From Escherichia phage HC12: DNA of 39,342 nt. A model generated the notes under the pieces. The model saw only the letters and a list, made by a program, of their open reading frames with translations. It had not been told where the DNA came from and searched no databases. Shown here piece by piece: positions 6,168-39,180 of this stretch (the first letter of the stretch is position 1; every line of letters begins with the position of its first letter). The stretch lies in the sequence record OL362275.1. One strand, given 5' to 3'. Both the position numbers and the translations under genes were made by a program.

Positions 6168-6190
6168 CCTAAACTATCACTATAGGATTA
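6168..6190 (+). promoter_or_regulatory. Phage RNA polymerase promoter (phi1.1-like)
   Basis: CCTAAACTATCACTATAGGATTA, promoter family member, +1 G at 6185. Confidence 0.7.
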
Positions 6191-6232
6191 GACTCAAGGT
6201 CATGACTCAAAGTCGTGGCCTTCATGATTAAC
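6188..6232 (+). promoter_or_regulatory. RNase III-type processing hairpin (R1.1-like)
   Basis: TTAGACTCAAGGTCATGACTCAAAGTCGTGGCCTTCATGATTAA. Same conserved element recurs at 13046 and 36348, at the positions of T7 sites R1.1, R4.7 and R18.5. Confidence 0.55.
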
Positions 6233-6263
6233 CCTAAATAAACACTACTGGAGATTTAACCGT

Positions 6264-8682: not shown

Positions 8683-8837
8683 CTGACGTAGAGAAGAAAT
8701 ACATCGTTGAGCTTGAGGGTCGCGTTCAGTCCTTCGAGGTTCCGTTGTACGCAAAGTCTCTAGAAGAGGCTACCCTGAAGTCCCAAGAGTATGAGGACGC
8801 TGGTTTTGTGGTCGGACGGATTCGTCCTGAGACCTAA
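8679..8837 (+). CDS. 2: Gp2-like inhibitor of host RNA polymerase
   Basis: Hand-translated 52-aa [55 protein letters not shown]. Aligns with T7 Gp2 ([34 protein letters not shown]). Absent from the track (under 60 aa). Confidence 0.75.
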
Positions 8838-8855
8838 ACTATCACTGTAGGACAG
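8833..8855 (+). promoter_or_regulatory. Phage RNA polymerase promoter (phi2.5-like), variant CACTGTAGG core
   Basis: CTAAACTATCACTGTAGGACAGA; -3 is G instead of A. Confidence 0.6.
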
Positions 8856-11042: not shown

Positions 11043-11121
11043 GTCTCCATAGCTCAAACGGTAGAGCGGCGGGTCGTGATGGCCTATTGCGATTAGGGTT
11101 CGAATCCCCGTGGAGACGCCA
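11043..11121 (+). tRNA. tRNA-like element (canonical acceptor, D and T arms, encoded CCA; anticodon arm non-canonical)
   Basis: GTCTCCA...TGGAGAC perfect 7-bp acceptor stem. D arm GCTC-AAACGGTA-GAGC with G18G19. T arm with GGTTCGAATCC. Discriminator G then CCA. The 26 nt between the D and T arms do not form a clean 5-bp anticodon stem; best fold gives loop GTCGTGA (anticodon CGU, Thr) with an imperfect stem. Confidence 0.45.
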
Positions 11122-12878: not shown

Positions 12879-13043
12879 GTGTTAAAGAAACTTAAAGCTC
12901 GCTACCATCGGTTCATGTACAAATGGTGGAGCGACGAAGCAACCTGCCTGTCGAACATTCTGGGAGACCAGCGGTTCAACTCTGAGGCATGGAAGAAAGC
13001 TAACCGGAAGTTCATGTATCACTTCTTGCGTACAGACTTCTAG
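12879..13043 (+). CDS. Hypothetical small protein (54 aa, GTG start)
   Basis: GGAGGA RBS 6 nt upstream of GTG. Hand translation (M)LKKLKARYHRFMYKWWSDEATCLSNILGDQRFNSEAWKKANRKFMYHFLRTDF. Position of T7 genes 4.3/4.5. Confidence 0.45.
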   Translation: MLKKLKARYHRFMYKWWSDEATCLSNILGDQRFNSEAWKKANRKFMYHFLRTDF

Positions 13044-13045
13044 GT

Positions 13046-13090
13046 CTAGACTCAAGGTCATTCACATAGAGTGGCCTTTATGATTAGACT
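13046..13090 (+). promoter_or_regulatory. RNase III-type processing hairpin (R4.7-like)
   Basis: CTAGACTCAAGGTCATTCACATAGAGTGGCCTTTATGATTAGAC, second copy of the conserved element, upstream of the DNA polymerase gene. Confidence 0.55.
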
Positions 13091-13106
13091 AAACGGAGGA
13101 TTAACC

Positions 13107-17006: not shown

Positions 17007-17080
17007 TTTACTGGGCCGGACTTCTGGCCCTTTACTGCATGTACAAGTGGTTCGGGTCAAACAACCGTCCTAAACACTGA
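17003..17080 (+). CDS. Hypothetical small hydrophobic peptide (25 aa, GTG start overlapping the gene 6 stop)
   Basis: Hand translation (M)IYWAGLLALYCMYKWFGSNNRPKH. Speculative. Confidence 0.2.
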   Translation: MIYWAGLLALYCMYKWFGSNNRPKH

Positions 17081-17132
17081 GTCTAACCGATAGTCATATC
17101 CTATCAATCCAACAGTCATCCATAGGTGAAAC

Positions 17133-17155
17133 ACTAAACTATCACTATAGGGACT
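17133..17155 (+). promoter_or_regulatory. Phage RNA polymerase promoter (phi6.5-like)
   Basis: CACTAAACTATCACTATAGGGAC, +1 G at 17150. Confidence 0.7.
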
Positions 17156-17216
17156 TTATGACCTAAGATATGACTATAAGATATACTTTAGTCTTAACTT
17201 AAAGAGGAGATTCAAG

Positions 17217-19993: not shown

Positions 19994-19995
19994 AC

Positions 19996-20089
19996 TAGAG
20001 CCACTCAAAGTGGGACTTACTGTAGCGCAAACAATGACAGTTGGCATTGATCCTAAGTCATCCTACAGGTCCTACTTTGAGTGGCTCTA
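19996..20089 (+). promoter_or_regulatory. Long inverted repeat forming a roughly 22-bp stem in the gene 9 leader
   Basis: AGAGCCACTCAAAGT at 19997-20011 is the exact reverse complement of ACTTTGAGTGGCTCT at 20074-20088; pairing extends with G-U pairs to about 22 bp around a loop of about 48 nt. Confidence 0.6.
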
Positions 20090-21005: not shown

Positions 21006-21028
21006 ACTAAACTATCACTATAGGGAGA
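21006..21028 (+). promoter_or_regulatory. Phage RNA polymerase promoter (phi10-like), full consensus ending GGGAGA
   Basis: ACTAAACTATCACTATAGGGAGA, best copy of the family, upstream of the major capsid gene. Confidence 0.8.
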
Positions 21029-21130
21029 CCAAGAGAAAGACTCAAGGTTTCCCTATTACTTCAGTCCATACGGATTGGGCGTACAGCAAGTAATAAACTT
21101 TATCTTTCAATTGAATAGGAGAATTATCAT

Positions 21131-22446: not shown

Positions 22447-22487
22447 AAACCCCTTGGGTGCCTTCGGGTGCTTGAGGGGTTTTTTGC
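22447..22487 (+). terminator. Tphi-like intrinsic terminator
   Basis: AACCCCTTGGGTGCC-TTCG-GGTGCTTGAGGGGTT followed by TTTTTTG; close to the T7 Tphi terminator sequence. Confidence 0.85.
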
Positions 22488-23405: not shown

Positions 23406-25763
23406 ATGCCGCTTATTACGCAAAGCATAAAAAATCTTAAGGGTGGCATTAGCCAACAGCCTGACATCCTGAGGTTCTCAGACCAAGGCGAGGCCCAAGT
23501 TAACTGCTGGTCATCCGAGAGTGATGGCCTCCAGAAGCGTCCACCTACAGTCTTCAAGAGACGTATTAACATCGACGTTGGGAGCAACCCTAAGTTCCAC
23601 CTGATTAACCGTGACGAGCATGAGCAGTATTACATCGTGTTCAACGGGTCAAACATTCAGGTAGTTGACTTGAGTGGTAATCAATACTCAGTTTCCGGTG
23701 CGGTAGATTACGTTAAGTCGTCCAACCCGCGAGATGACATCCGTGTCGTTACTGTTGCAGACTATACGTTCATCGTGAACCGTAAGGTTGTCGTTAAAGG
23801 TGGAAGCGAGAAGTCACACTCTGGTTATAACCGCAAAGCACGAGCTTTAATTAACCTGCGTGGCGGACAGTATGGTCGAACCCTTAAGGTGGGAATCAAC
23901 GGTGGCGTTAAGGTCTCGCATAAGCTACCAGCAGGTAATGATGCCGAGAATGACCCACCTAAGGTGGACGCTCAAGCCATCGGTTCAGCTCTGAGAGACC
24001 TTCTTGTTGCTGCTTACCCTACCTTCACGTTCGACCTTGGGTCTGGATTCCTGTTAATCACTGCCCCTTCAGGGACTGACATTAACTCAGTGGAGACGGA
24101 GGATGGCTATGCTAACCAGCTAATCAGCCCAGTACTCGACACGGTGCAAACAATCTCTAAGTTGCCTCTTGCAGCTCCAAATGGGTACATCATTAAGATT
24201 CAAGGTGAGACCAACAGTAGCGCCGATGAATATTACGTGATGTATGACTCCAACACTAAGACGTGGAAGGAGACAGTAGAGCCGGGAGTGGTCACTGGGT
24301 TCGATAACACCACAATGCCTCATGCTCTGGTGAGACAATCTGACGGCTCCTTTGAGTTCAAGACTCTGGACTGGTCTAATCGTGGTGCTGGTAATGATGA
24401 CACAAACCCTATGCCTAGCTTCGTGGATGCTACGATTAACGATGTGTTCTTCTACAGGAATAGGCTGGGGTTCTTGTCAGGCGAGAACGTAATCATGAGC
24501 CGTTCAGCCAGCTACTTTGCGTTCTTCCCTAAGAGTGTGGCTACACTGAGTGATGATGATCCTATTGACGTAGCTGTAAGTCATCCTAGAATCTCAATCC
24601 TTAAGTATGCCGTTCCGTTTAGCGAGCAGCTACTACTTTGGTCGGATGAGGTGCAGTTCGTGATGACAAGCTCTGGGGTCCTTACCTCGAAGTCTATCCA
24701 GCTTGATGTAGGCTCAGAGTTTGCCCTAGGTGACAATGCCAGACCGTTCGCTGTAGGACGCTCAGTCTTCTTCTCAGCACCTCGTGGGTCATTCACCAGC
24801 ATTAAGAGATACTTCGCTGTAGCAGATGTGTCTGACGTGAAGGATGCCGATGATACCACTGGACACGTACTGTCCTATATCCCTAACGGGGTGTTTGACA
24901 TTCAAGGTACAGGGACTGAGAACTACATCTGCGTCAACTCTACAGGTGCATACAACCGAATCTACATCTACAAGTTCTTGTTTAAGGACGGCGTACAGCT
25001 TCAAGCCTCTTGGTCACACTGGGAGTTCCCTAAAGATGATAAGATTCTGGCGTCTGCTTCTATTGGCTCTACCATGTTCATCGTTCGTCAGCACCAAGGC
25101 GGAGTGGACCTTGAGCACCTTAAGTTCATCAAAGAGGCGACTGACTTTCCGTCAGAGCCGTATAGACTCCACGTTGACTCCAAGGTGTCTATGGTCATCC
25201 CAATTGGCTCGTTTAATGCTGACACATATAAGACTACGGTTGACATTGGTGCTGCTTATGGTGGTAATGCCCCGTCTCCCGGTCGGTACTATCTGATTGA
25301 CAGTCAGGGTGCTTATTTGGACCTTGGGGACTTGACCAGTATCTCTACTGTGATTACCCTCAACGGCGATTGGTCAGGACGTACAGTGTTCATCGGGCGG
25401 TCCTATCTGATGTCCTACAAGTTCTCACGGTTCCTGATTAAGATTGAAGATGATAGTGGCACCCAGTCTGAAGACACTGGTCGTCTACAGCTTCGTCGGG
25501 CTTGGGTCAACTACAAGGACACTGGAGCTCTGAGACTCATTGTCAGAAACGGTGAGCGAGAGTTCGTTAACACCTTTAATGGGTACACCCTTGGTCAGCA
25601 GACCATAGGGACTACTAACATTGGTGACGGGCAGTATCGCTTCGCTATGAATGGTAACGCATTGACCACGAGTCTAACCTTAGAGTCCGACTATCCTACC
25701 CCGGTGTCCATCGTTGGGTGTGGCTGGGAGGCGTCATACGCTAAGAAAGCTCGTTCCGTCTAA
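23406..25763 (+). CDS. 12: Tail tubular protein B
   Basis: 785 aa, colinear with T7 gp12: SQSIKNLKGGISQQPDILR, INRDEHEQYY, FFYRNRLGFLSGENVI, DDDPIDVAVS, GRLQLRRAWVNY, GCGWE. Confidence 0.97.
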   Translation: MPLITQSIKNLKGGISQQPDILRFSDQGEAQVNCWSSESDGLQKRPPTVFKRRINIDVGSNPKFHLINRDEHEQYYIVFNGSNIQVVDLSGNQYSVSGAVDYVKSSNPRDDIRVVTVADYTFIVNRKVVVKGGSEKSHSGYNRKARALINLRGGQYGRTLKVGINGGVKVSHKLPAGNDAENDPPKVDAQAIGSALRDLLVAAYPTFTFDLGSGFLLITAPSGTDINSVETEDGYANQLISPVLDTVQTISKLPLAAPNGYIIKIQGETNSSADEYYVMYDSNTKTWKETVEPGVVTGFDNTTMPHALVRQSDGSFEFKTLDWSNRGAGNDDTNPMPSFVDATINDVFFYRNRLGFLSGENVIMSRSASYFAFFPKSVATLSDDDPIDVAVSHPRISILKYAVPFSEQLLLWSDEVQFVMTSSGVLTSKSIQLDVGSEFALGDNARPFAVGRSVFFSAPRGSFTSIKRYFAVADVSDVKDADDTTGHVLSYIPNGVFDIQGTGTENYICVNSTGAYNRIYIYKFLFKDGVQLQASWSHWEFPKDDKILASASIGSTMFIVRQHQGGVDLEHLKFIKEATDFPSEPYRLHVDSKVSMVIPIGSFNADTYKTTVDIGAAYGGNAPSPGRYYLIDSQGAYLDLGDLTSISTVITLNGDWSGRTVFIGRSYLMSYKFSRFLIKIEDDSGTQSEDTGRLQLRRAWVNYKDTGALRLIVRNGEREFVNTFNGYTLGQQTIGTTNIGDGQYRFAMNGNALTTSLTLESDYPTPVSIVGCGWEASYAKKARSV

Positions 25764-25787
25764 CTTATTGAAGGGCCTATAGATTTA

Positions 25788-25810
25788 CCTTAACTATCAC
25801 TATAGGGACT
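25788..25810 (+). promoter_or_regulatory. Phage RNA polymerase promoter (phi13-like) flanked by a 12-bp inverted repeat
   Basis: CCTTAACTATCACTATAGGGACT. AAGGGCCTATAG at 25771-25782 is the exact reverse complement of CTATAGGCCCTT at 25809-25820. Confidence 0.7.
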
Positions 25811-25839
25811 ATAGGCCCTTAAGGTTATAAGGAGACTTT

Positions 25840-26310
25840 ATGTATATTCGCAAGGCTACGGAACAGGATGTCCGCTACTTTCTGTGGCATCTTTCAGCAG
25901 ATGATGTTAATGAGTGCAAAGCAAACTATGGGTCAACCGTTGGTCTCTCTGAAAGACTGCTTAAGCATCTATCTCCGTCATCTGTGGTTTTAACGAATGG
26001 TGTAGGCGAAGTGTTTGCCTATGGTGGAAACCAAGGGGATAACGTATGGTTCTTGACTTCCGGTATTGTCCATAAGCTGAGACCTAAAGAGAAGCGGGAG
26101 TTTATAAAGCGTATCTCTGAGTACAGGGACTTAATGTTAGACCAATACGGGACCATCTGGAACTACGTGTGGTCAGGCAATAAGTCTCACATTAAATTCT
26201 TGAAGTTGCTTGGGGCTAAATTCCATGATGATTGGACTATAAGCCCAGTAACTGGTGATCGTTTTCAACTATTCACTATCTCTAAGGAGGACGTATGTGC
26301 GAGCCAGTAA
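25840..26310 (+). CDS. 13: Gene 13-position protein (internal virion/assembly protein by synteny)
   Basis: 156-aa ORF with AAGGAG RBS directly after the promoter and before gp14. Assignment by position only. Confidence 0.6.
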   Translation: MYIRKATEQDVRYFLWHLSADDVNECKANYGSTVGLSERLLKHLSPSSVVLTNGVGEVFAYGGNQGDNVWFLTSGIVHKLRPKEKREFIKRISEYRDLMLDQYGTIWNYVWSGNKSHIKFLKLLGAKFHDDWTISPVTGDRFQLFTISKEDVCASQ

Positions 26311-26893: not shown

Positions 26894-29176
26894 ATGGCTA
26901 GTAATATTGAATCAGCTCTGGCTAATCGGACTATGGGTCGTGGCAGAGCGCCTGGTAAAACTATCGCCGTCAACTATCAAGCAGCCAGCGTTCAGGCTCC
27001 AACTGGCGACTCCGGTCTGGCTCGTGCGTTAACCAACTTCGTTGAGTCTGGGACAGGATTGTACAAGCAGTTCAAGGACGATGAGAAGACCAGAGCTGAC
27101 GAGCGGTCTAACGAGATTATCCGTAAGCTGACACCCCAGCAAAGACGTGAGGCTATCCAGAACGGCACATTGCTGTATCAGGATGACCCTTACGCTATGG
27201 AAGCACTTCGAGTCAAGACTGGTCGTAATGCTGCCTTTGCTGTAGACGACGAGATTAACGTTAAGATTCAGAACGGTGAGTTCCGTACACGTCAGGACAT
27301 GGAAGAGTATCGTCACCAGCGACTTCAGGACGCCGCTAAGTCATATGCTGAAGAGGCGGGTATTAACCCTACAGACGAGTTCTTCCAGCGTGGGTTCAAC
27401 GATAACATCACAGACCGCAACATCGCTATCTATGGGTCTTTCAATAAGTATTTCAGCAAGCAGTCTGAAGAGACAGCAATGTTGAACACCCGTATTGAGA
27501 TGAACTCATTCCTGAACGATGGCGACCTGATGCGTTCACCTGAGTCTGGCAAGACCTTCATGGCCTACCTTCGGGATGGACTAACGACTGCTGCTATCCC
27601 CTCGGACCAGCGAGCGCGGGAGGTCATTGCCCAGACGGTCCGTGACGCAATCCAGAAGTCAGGCGGCTCAAACTTCCTACAGCAAGTACGAGGCGAGCGA
27701 ATCACCCTTAACGGCGTGGATGCTACAGTCGAAGAGATTGTAGGACCTGATGTCTTCAACGCTGCTATTGTTGAGGCACAAGGAACTGAGTACAAGCTGG
27801 TGGCTAAGTATCAGGAAGACTTAGCGTTAGGCGTGCAGTCTGCGATTCTTCAGGACGACCCAACCATCGGTCTGGCCCAGATTCAAAAACTCAAGGAGCA
27901 GAACAACCTGCTTCAACCGGGTGAAGAACTCACACCTCAGCGTCAGATGCTTATTAATGCCGAAGCCAGCTTACTGGAAGCGGTAAAGCGTAAGTCTGCT
28001 GAACAGGCGAAGGAGAACACGAAGTTAATCCAGACCCAGAACAAGCAACTGGTCATTGACCAAGTGTATCAGCGACGTCTGGCTGGAGACAACGTGTCCA
28101 CCAACTATGAGGACCTTCCGGTCTCTGAAGCCACAGGAGAGTTCAAGCGTTCAGACATGAACAACTATGCGTCTTCTAAGCTACAGCAGATTGACCAGAT
28201 GGACATCCCTGAGGCTGCTAAGGACGCACAGAAGGTTGCATTATTAAGAGCTGACACTAACAACGGTCCGTTCCGTAATGCCTTTCAAACGCTTACTCAG
28301 GACGCTGCTGGTGAGTGGCAAGCTGCGGTCATCCGTGGGCAGTACGACCCAGACAAGCTGCAACGCTTCGAATCTCTTCGTCGTGCCTACACTCAGGACC
28401 CTTCAAGTTTCGCTGCTCTGTATCCTGACCAAGCTCAGTTGTTCTCTACGTTCGACCAGATGGACAAGATGGGTCTGGACCCTCAGACGATGATTGAAGC
28501 TGATAAGCAAGCTGCAAGTCAAAGCCGTGAGATGCGCATGGAGTCAGACAAGGCGTGGCAGGAGTTGAAGAACGACTCTCGGAATAAGGACCTTTCGCGT
28601 CTTCCTACGTCTCTAGACTCAAGTGCTCGTAAGGTCTGGGACTCATGGTACTATCGTACAGGTAACGCTGACGCTGCAACGCAGCAGACTCAACGCTGGC
28701 TGAATGAGAACACCGTAACGTTCCAGTCTGAAGGTTCTGACGGTAAGTCCATCGGCATGGTGTCCAAACACCAGCTTATGGTCGGGGATAACCCAGAGTC
28801 GTGGCAGGTGGGTCGAGACATTATCGACACCGCTCGTAAGCAGCTCATTAAGGCCAACCCTTGGGTAGTGAACTCTCAGTTGTCCGTTGTTGAACAGAAC
28901 GGCTCTATCTTCCTCCAAGACGCTACGGGGACTATTCGTATTCGATACGATAAAGAACTTGTAGGTAAACTCTACCGCGAACAACAGCAGAAGGTACAAG
29001 ATGCCGCATATGCTCAGGCAGAACGTGACGCTAACAAGCGAGCGCGTATCGTCGGGACTAAAGCTGCTGGTGACAAACGTCGAGCTGACCGAGAGGCCAA
29101 CATCGAGAAGCGCGGTGGGATGTACAATGATGTCTCACTGGAGGGTATCGCAAACACCTTAATCGGTAAGGAGTAA
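26894..29176 (+). CDS. 15: Internal virion protein C
   Basis: 760-aa ORF between gp14 and gp16, size and position as T7 gp15. RBS GAGGAGG. Confidence 0.85.
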   Translation: MASNIESALANRTMGRGRAPGKTIAVNYQAASVQAPTGDSGLARALTNFVESGTGLYKQFKDDEKTRADERSNEIIRKLTPQQRREAIQNGTLLYQDDPYAMEALRVKTGRNAAFAVDDEINVKIQNGEFRTRQDMEEYRHQRLQDAAKSYAEEAGINPTDEFFQRGFNDNITDRNIAIYGSFNKYFSKQSEETAMLNTRIEMNSFLNDGDLMRSPESGKTFMAYLRDGLTTAAIPSDQRAREVIAQTVRDAIQKSGGSNFLQQVRGERITLNGVDATVEEIVGPDVFNAAIVEAQGTEYKLVAKYQEDLALGVQSAILQDDPTIGLAQIQKLKEQNNLLQPGEELTPQRQMLINAEASLLEAVKRKSAEQAKENTKLIQTQNKQLVIDQVYQRRLAGDNVSTNYEDLPVSEATGEFKRSDMNNYASSKLQQIDQMDIPEAAKDAQKVALLRADTNNGPFRNAFQTLTQDAAGEWQAAVIRGQYDPDKLQRFESLRRAYTQDPSSFAALYPDQAQLFSTFDQMDKMGLDPQTMIEADKQAASQSREMRMESDKAWQELKNDSRNKDLSRLPTSLDSSARKVWDSWYYRTGNADAATQQTQRWLNENTVTFQSEGSDGKSIGMVSKHQLMVGDNPESWQVGRDIIDTARKQLIKANPWVVNSQLSVVEQNGSIFLQDATGTIRIRYDKELVGKLYREQQQKVQDAAYAQAERDANKRARIVGTKAAGDKRRADREANIEKRGGMYNDVSLEGIANTLIGKE

Positions 29177-36084: not shown

Positions 36085-36344
36085 CGCAGATGGACTTAGA
36101 GAAGTTCCTGTTAATGCTGGACACAGAACGTGCTAGACTAATGCTGCAAGACCTGCGGGATGACTCTAAGCGTTCGCCCCAGCTCTACAACGCCATTGAG
36201 AAACTGCTTGCTCGACACAACTTTGTGTTAAGCAAGGTGTCTGTGGACGAGAAGACGCTGGCGGATATGGAGGCCTTGAACGCAGAGTACGATAAGGTGC
36301 TTTCAGCTACTGAGGATAATGACACCGGGTATGGTGTTCAATAA
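36081..36344 (+). CDS. 18: Terminase small subunit
   Basis: 87 aa; FLLMLDTERARLMLQDLRDDSKRSPQLYNAIEKLLARH aligns with T7 gp18. Confidence 0.9.
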   Translation: MTQMDLEKFLLMLDTERARLMLQDLRDDSKRSPQLYNAIEKLLARHNFVLSKVSVDEKTLADMEALNAEYDKVLSATEDNDTGYGVQ

Positions 36345-36347
36345 GTG

Positions 36348-36390
36348 TTAGACTCAAGGTCATCGTCAGGTGGCCTTTATGGTTAACACT
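36348..36390 (+). promoter_or_regulatory. RNase III-type processing hairpin (R18.5-like)
   Basis: GTTAGACTCAAGGTCATCGTCAGGTGGCCTTTATGGTTAAC, third copy of the conserved element, at the position of T7 R18.5. Confidence 0.55.
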
Positions 36391-36440
36391 GACTAGTGGA
36401 GGCGACTCTACGTTAAATCTGATAAACCGGGAGGGCAACT

Positions 36441-38650: not shown

Positions 38651-38744
38651 CTGAATGAATAACTATAGGCGAAAACTGAGTTAATAAGCAGTTAGTAACC
38701 TATAGTTACTACCAGTCTAACCTACTGTTTTACAAGGAGTTTGG

Positions 38745-39136: not shown

Positions 39137-39180
39137 ACCTAAGGTCAGTTCATAGCTGACGCTACTCTACTGACCTTAGC
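39137..39180. repeat. Inverted repeat CTAAGGTCAGT / ACTGACCTTAG (11 bp arms, 19-nt spacer) near the right end
   Basis: Exact reverse-complement arms in the sequence; non-coding right-end region. Confidence 0.5.

Follow-up and report, generated by a model that had tools for sequence, protein, structure and literature searches.

A promoter-enclosing inverted repeat between genes 12 and 13 of a K1F-like phage is a probable R13-type RNase III processing site

In phage T7, promoters commonly come paired with an RNase site, the transcription start lying upstream of the cut, and R13 is among the ten known RNase cleavage sites of this phage (PMC6938266). At T7 R13, the sequences UUCUCCCUGUGGUG / CACUAUAGGGAGAA enclose promoter phi13 at 27274; the arms around the promoter can also be read as TTCTCCCTGTGGTG...CACTATAGGGAGAA, and the stem contains two G-U pairs. 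Dunn and Studier are said to have placed the T7 cut, in 1983, at 27281, one nucleotide 3' of the stem. In the RefSeq record of phage T3 (NC_003298), a stem_loop at 25443-25480 is annotated as "RNase III recognition site R13" and encloses promoter phi13 (25457-25479). The 3' arm of T3 R13 is the promoter core itself (about -6 to +8; arms GUCUCCCUGCGGUG / CACUAAAGGGAGAC, with a 2-nt internal mismatch), and the upstream half of the promoter alone lies in the loop. T3 R6.5 has a similar construction at another junction, with a stem_loop at 17135-17206 that encloses the phi6.5 promoter (17160-17182). For the host enzyme, the E. coli RNase III minimum is an 11-bp helix between cut and loop, and with coaxially stacked helices and internal loops the enzyme cuts once and leaves a protective 3' hairpin (PMC1540722). 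Our literature search returned no report of cleavage or of transcript ends for any K1F-type phage.

We analysed the 39,342-nt sequence of Escherichia phage HC12 (OL362275.1; the whole stretch is called the window below), a complete or near-complete K1F-like genome (genus Kayfunavirus, subfamily Studiervirinae). Over the 2 kb that surround the hairpin described here, identity with phages SR04, 6925, Mt1B1_P3 and K1F is 96-97%. According to the gene map and homology, gene 12 (tail tubular protein B; 23406-25763, + strand) is the upstream cistron and gene 13 (internal virion protein A; 25840-26310, + strand, ATG at 25840) the downstream one, and the non-coding gap of 76 nt between them holds two complementary arms and a promoter. 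The 5' arm AAGGGCCTATAG (25771-25782, + strand) starts 8 nt past the gene 12 stop codon, is non-coding, and occupies -34 to -23 relative to the promoter start. The 3' arm CTATAGGCCCTT (25809-25820, + strand) corresponds to +5 to +16 of the phi13-initiated transcript, and the 26-nt loop between the arms (25783-25808, + strand) contains promoter positions -22 to +4. The initial annotation had described a perfect 12-bp inverted repeat flanking a phi13-type promoter, and this description was confirmed, the two arms being 100% complementary. With this placement the arms enclose at least the upstream, specificity half of the promoter, and promoter-initiated RNA is thus without the 5' arm. The Shine-Dalgarno sequence of gene 13, AGGAGAC, was read from the sequence at 25830-25836 (+ strand).

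This is the sole perfect inverted repeat of at least 12 bp with a loop of at most 60 nt in the whole window. Nevertheless, when random sequences with the length and composition of the window were simulated by a first-order Markov model and searched with loops of 3-60 nt, 30 of 200 (about 15%) contained at least one perfect 12-bp inverted repeat, so the repeat by itself has no significance and the case depends on its placement and on comparison with relatives. It is the intergenic placement around a promoter, within a gap of 76 nt, together with the conservation in relatives, that lifts the repeat above chance. Other perfect repeats are found at the right genome end, namely the 10-bp repeat TAACTATAGG/CCTATAGTTA (38660-38708, + strand), whose 29-nt loop contains CTATAGG, and the 11-bp repeat CTAAGGTCAGT/ACTGACCTTAG (39139-39179, + strand), with a 19-nt loop and an AAGGTC...GACCTT base.

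The phi13-type promoter for the phage RNA polymerase, CCTTAACTATCACTATA followed by GGGACT (25788-25810, + strand), probably starts transcription at G25805. It matches the 14-nt core ACTATCACTATAGG with 0 mismatches, and the site carries a K1F-consensus promoter annotation in a close relative, phage ASO2B (MZ726794). Eleven +-strand matches to this core, eight of them exact, were detected in the window, and among these 11 promoters an enclosing perfect helix is present at phi13 only. At the promoter with +1 = 8850, an upstream complement of 10 bp, some of them G-U pairs (8803-8853, + strand; GUUUUGUGGU at -47 to -38 with ACUGUAGGAC at -6 to +4) may form another promoter-overlapping hairpin in a T7-like register. 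The lowest fold z-score among the promoter regions tested (-4.4) belonged to a long hairpin in the leader of the scaffolding-protein gene (19995-20089, + strand; -47 kcal/mol), which begins 8 nt past promoter +1 = 19988 and has a near-perfect lower stem of about 20 bp, UAGAGCCACUCAAAGUGGGAC / GUCCUACUUUGAGUGGCUCUA. The length of this hairpin suffices for an RNase III substrate, and it lies outside the site positions annotated in T3. The transcript of the capsid-gene promoter carries a 5' stem-loop GGGAGACC...GGUUUCCC at its start (21023-21053, + strand), which resembles the leader of T7 phi10.

The 96-nt hairpin region has a minimum free energy (MFE) of -27.8 kcal/mol (z = -2.7 against shuffles). 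In the MFE fold, the 12-bp upper stem, which has zero G-U pairs in this genome, is followed by an asymmetric internal loop AUUG / A (4/1 nt) and a 6-bp lower stem formed by UAACUU (25761-25766, + strand), which includes the gene 12 stop codon, and AGGUUA (25822-25827, + strand). An upper stem of 12 bp with a lower stem of 6 bp is long enough for E. coli RNase III, which needs no fewer than 11 bp from cut to loop and about two helical turns when stacked helices are counted together (PMC1540722). No intrinsic terminator was found between 25600 and 26000, where AAGGUUAUAAGG directly follows the stem, and a reading of the hairpin as a Tphi-type terminator was rejected, as it is not a G+C-rich hairpin with a U run. 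After the capsid gene, at 22447-22485 (+ strand), a G+C-rich hairpin is followed by a U run and is Tphi terminator-like. An Rfam scan of the whole window gave no family that reached its gathering score at the gene 13 hairpin, its sole match being a tRNA at 11043-11118. This tRNA gene (11043-11121, + strand; Rfam tRNA 36.7 bits; tRNA-Thr with anticodon CGT according to ARAGORN) is located about 50 nt downstream of promoter +1 = 10992 and just ahead of the primase/helicase gene. The tRNA stretch occurs in just 35 phage records, the best being LM33_P1 with 100% identity, and a few of them annotate tRNA-Thr or tRNA-OTHER.

By junction position and transcribed strand, the hairpin is the positional homolog of the annotated T3 R13, and as in T3 it is built around phi13 and leaves promoter-started RNA without the 5' arm. 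The geometry is different, because here the 3' arm does not coincide with the promoter core and the loop contains the whole promoter rather than its upstream half, and the K1F-type arms are perfect and unrelated in sequence to those of T3 R13. T7 R13 has the same promoter-in-hairpin layout, and its geometry differs from that of the K1F-type element in the way that of T3 does. The complete promoter in the loop, the two stems and the AAGG...CCUU base of the upper stem are features shared with T3 R6.5, although R6.5 has canonical flanks, ACUCAAGG...CCUUUAUGAUU, which are absent from the gene 13 hairpin. The analysed genome also has its own counterpart of T3 R6.5/phi6.5, a phi6.5-type promoter-in-hairpin at 17080-17187 (+ strand; +1 = 17150). 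Its 24-nt arms (17080-17103 and 17164-17187) are 79% complementary and contain an 11-bp perfect core, AUAGUCAUAUC/GAUAUGACUAU.

To compare the hairpin with canonical RNase III sites, defined as a lower stem, an ACUC-UAUG internal loop and an AAGGUC...GGCCUU upper stem, a covariance model was derived from 7 annotated T3 sites together with 3 from the window. The model found seven canonical RNase III-type sites in the window (26-65 bits), all on the + strand: 729-787, 1052-1104, 1782-1832 and 2139-2191 in the early region, 6183-6236 after the promoter at 6185, 13041-13092 ahead of the DNA polymerase gene, and 36343-36391 ahead of the 18.5-type gene. Given these seven model matches, use of RNase III-type sites by this genome is clearly indicated. 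The gene 13 hairpin shares with the canonical T7-type sites (R0.3, R0.5, R1, R1.1, R1.3, R4.7 and R18.5) two stems, lower and upper, separated by an asymmetric internal loop, with the upper stem starting A-U, A-U, G-C, G-C, but its loop has 26 nt instead of 4-9 nt, the sequence of its internal loop is different and its lower stem has just 6 bp. No match to the model was obtained at 25761-25827 at E <= 10 with the filters off. Consequently, the AAGG...CCUU base, which had made the hairpin a candidate canonical site, was downgraded to a weak resemblance, and the hairpin is a non-canonical member, as are T3 R13 and R3.8.

Conservation within the K1F clade was examined by comparing twenty distinct gene 12/13 junctions, taken from IMG/VR and GenBank, and a further 13 metagenomic copies. 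Across these junctions the arm cores GGCCTATAG...CTATAGGCC are kept, the exceptions being isolated substitutions of one base in the 5' arm, each in one sequence (A>G in L004, which yields a G-U pair, and G>T in L154), and the 3' arm is unchanged in every K1F-type junction compared. An exact-pattern scan of IMG/VR for these cores gave 25 matches, of which 22 were the gene 12/13 junction of K1F-type contigs and the remaining three (L036, L054 and L057) were unrelated hairpins. The 5' arm varies in its outer 3 nt, and in subclades other than that of K1F it reads AATGGCC, ATTGGCC or ATGGGCC against a constant GGCCCTT, giving one or two mismatches. This drift means that the perfect 12 bp are specific to the K1F subclade, where alone the outer three pairs are perfect, and from these sequences pairing in the outer part may be free of selection. 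In three subclades, seen in the K1F-type contigs L019, L024 and L026 from IMG/VR, the arms and the CACTATAGGGA core are retained while the specificity region of the promoter (-17 to -8) is swapped for alternative versions (AAACTATTACACCCT..., AAATATTTAACACT...), three in all between fixed arm cores. The specificity of the RNA polymerase and its promoter has, by implication, switched within the genus while the hairpin stayed.

Across 13 distinct K1F-type sequences, 91.5% of the cells in the pair count are paired and three changes, each one-sided, lead to G-U or away from it; the lower stem reaches 89%, its changes being one-sided only. Compensatory double changes within the clade number 0 for the 19 pairs in these 13 distinct sequences, and the 13 metagenomic copies add none. 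The within-genus comparison is compatible with a selected hairpin, short of proof, and the conserved 3' arm could alternatively owe its constraint to belonging to the 5' leader.

The comparison was then extended over Studiervirinae with 80 gene 13 loci collected from IMG/VR by a gp13 profile, and the 105 nt upstream of each were folded. These loci gave 61 distinct usable gene 12/13 junctions, and in 61 of 61 the upstream part or the -10 region of the promoter is enclosed by a helix of 7 bp or more. Compensatory changes are visible between genera, in counts taken from related sequences that are not independent events: the pair at promoter position +7 is G-C in 14, C-G in 9 and U-A in 10 sequences, and that at +6 is U-A in 21 and C-G in 8 across lineages. 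In L094, the initiation region TATTAGCCCAAC is wholly different, as is the 5' arm, and 15 of 15 positions are paired. Furthermore, positions -4 and -2 have G-U in place of A-U in most sequences, and RNA of the + strand is more stable than that of the - strand in 60 of the 61 junctions, with a mean margin of 8.6 kcal/mol; in the genome analysed here the gap is small (-27.8 vs -24.5 kcal/mol). The between-genera pattern thus fits an RNA structure of the + strand and not a symmetric site at the DNA level. In T7, T3, K11-type phages, Berlinvirus and MmP1, and also in L022, a divergent Kayfunavirus-like contig, the 3' arm consists of the promoter core and the initially transcribed sequence (about -9 to +8). 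The K1F clade departs from this, its 3' arm lying downstream of the promoter core, at +5 to +16.

The initial annotation had suggested that in RNA reading through from upstream the arms would pair and create an R13-like processing site. The T3 R13 annotation, the T7 layout and the helix in 61 of 61 junctions agree with this suggestion, and the compensatory changes between genera and the G-U asymmetry between strands carry it further; from these we infer the cleavage itself, the position of the cut and a stabilising effect. The inverted repeat is therefore probably the R13-type site of the K1F clade, at which host RNase III would cut read-through transcripts and no others. Late transcripts from upstream that read through gene 12 would contain both arms and would fold into the 12-bp upper stem with the 26-nt promoter loop, stacked on the 6-bp lower stem. 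Host RNase III would recognise the quasi-continuous helix of 12 + 6 bp. Taking T7 R13 as the model, the expected cut lies on the 3' side of the upper stem, close to its base, at about 25819-25823. The upstream product would be a gene 11-12 message ending in a protective 3' hairpin. The downstream product would be a message from gene 13 onward whose 5' end lies about 16 nt from the start used by phi13 itself, so the leader of gene 13 would be near-identical by either route. Transcripts started at phi13 (25805) have no 5' arm and thus would form no hairpin and would not be substrates. T7 is able to grow without RNase III (PMC6938266), so any effect of the hairpin is expected to be modulatory only.

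The main alternative to R13-type processing is that the hairpin forms in read-through RNA and stays uncut, serving as a barrier against 3' exonuclease or RNase E for the gene 12 mRNA, as a gate that hides the ribosome-binding site of gene 13, or as both, with gene 13 translated mainly from phi13-initiated RNA. The MFE fold of the read-through RNA pairs UUCC (25754-25757) with GGAG (25831-25834) of the Shine-Dalgarno sequence, and similar helices closing the ribosome-binding site with the gene 12 3' end are predicted at the T7, T3 and Berlinvirus junctions. The phi13-initiated leader is almost without structure (-7.1 kcal/mol), and the failure of the canonical model to match the hairpin also suits an uncut structure. 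However, the Shine-Dalgarno pairing is short, it is lost or altered in close relatives (TTCC>TTCA; 10-nt insertion variants) and in the Przondovirus junctions, and the homologous elements of T7 and T3 are recorded as cleavage or recognition sites. Pairing of the gene 12 3' end that would mask the Shine-Dalgarno sequence is predicted here and in several genera but is short and unconserved, and it was accordingly kept as a minor rival only. A structural hairpin that is not cut would be compatible with the missing covariation within the clade, the drift of the outer pairs and the size of the loop; we consider it possible but unlikely.

The unusual position of the 3' arm has a visible counterpart in the sequence, where ACTATAGGG is followed directly by ACTATAGGC as a 9-nt tandem repeat (25799-25816, + strand). 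The second copy supplies the inner half of the 3' arm, which thereby repeats promoter positions -4 to +3, and the 5' arm has two pairing options, 7 bp with the CTATAGG of the promoter itself and 12 bp with the distal copy. Judging from this arrangement, a tandem duplication of 9 nt in the initiation region most likely displaced the 3' arm off the promoter to +5 to +16, which places the entire promoter in the loop. The duplication would have freed the initially transcribed GGGA from serving as a strand of a G+C-rich stem, the promoter keeping its consensus GGGA start and the stem its GGCC/GGCC core. A bolder and rather doubtful extension is that the two registers, the ancestral T7-like 7 bp and the 12 bp, uncoupled the strength of the promoter from that of the hairpin and could gate gene 13, read-through RNA depending on RNase III and phi13 RNA being constitutively open.

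The same tandem repeat also admits a functionless reading, in which the 3' arm is a relic of the 9-nt duplication beside an older and redundant upstream arm and is kept by the low divergence of the clade. The zero count of within-clade covariation, the decay of the outer arm positions and the frequency of perfect 12-bp repeats in simulated sequences are consistent with such a relic. Against it, the arm cores are fixed while the promoter region, the 3' end of gene 12 and the downstream leader have diverged or been replaced, and a promoter-enclosing hairpin is present at this junction in every genus sampled, which makes a relic quite improbable.

A function at the DNA level would make the palindrome a protein-binding site, as the initial annotation had proposed as its alternative, in particular one for a dimeric protein, or a cruciform or single-strand hairpin that affects the promoter or replication or is sensed by defences. 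The arms are perfect and single-stranded DNA also folds here (-11.4 kcal/mol, z = -3.5), but the arms are 26 bp apart, with half-site centres 38 bp apart, which is atypical of an operator, and neither a sigma-70 promoter signal nor a terminator was found at the hairpin. T7-group late promoters are not known to have a regulator of the dimeric operator type. Some T7 promoters double as secondary replication origins, and this role was rejected for phi13, as phiOR and phi6.5 are the ones named (PMC8373140). The Lamassu DdmABC defence can take palindromic T7 RNase III sites as DNA hairpin signals (PMC11707656), but detection by a defence system is a cost and not a function. The pairing in the family tolerates G-U, which exists in + strand RNA only and would count as a mismatch in the opposite strand or in symmetric DNA. 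The protein-binding proposal found no support, and a DNA-level function is very improbable.

The element between genes 12 and 13 represents the K1F clade in the R13/phi13 promoter-in-hairpin class. The principle is already known from the T7 and T3 genome analyses, and the element opens no new question. In the K1F-type GenBank and RefSeq records compared, the hairpin is without annotation, and it is worth annotating in these genomes, whose phages are candidates for therapy against E. coli K1. For genome refactoring or promoter borrowing, the flanks of phi13 carry an RNA signal, and palindromes of this kind are also readable as DNA hairpins by Lamassu-type defences (PMC11707656). If the two-register reading is true, the duplication would document an evolutionary route out of a conflict between promoter and RNA structure. 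For the subfamily, the promoter-in-hairpin at gene 13 is a rule that has survived the replacement of both promoter specificity and stem sequence, and K1F-type phages obey it with a shifted stem.
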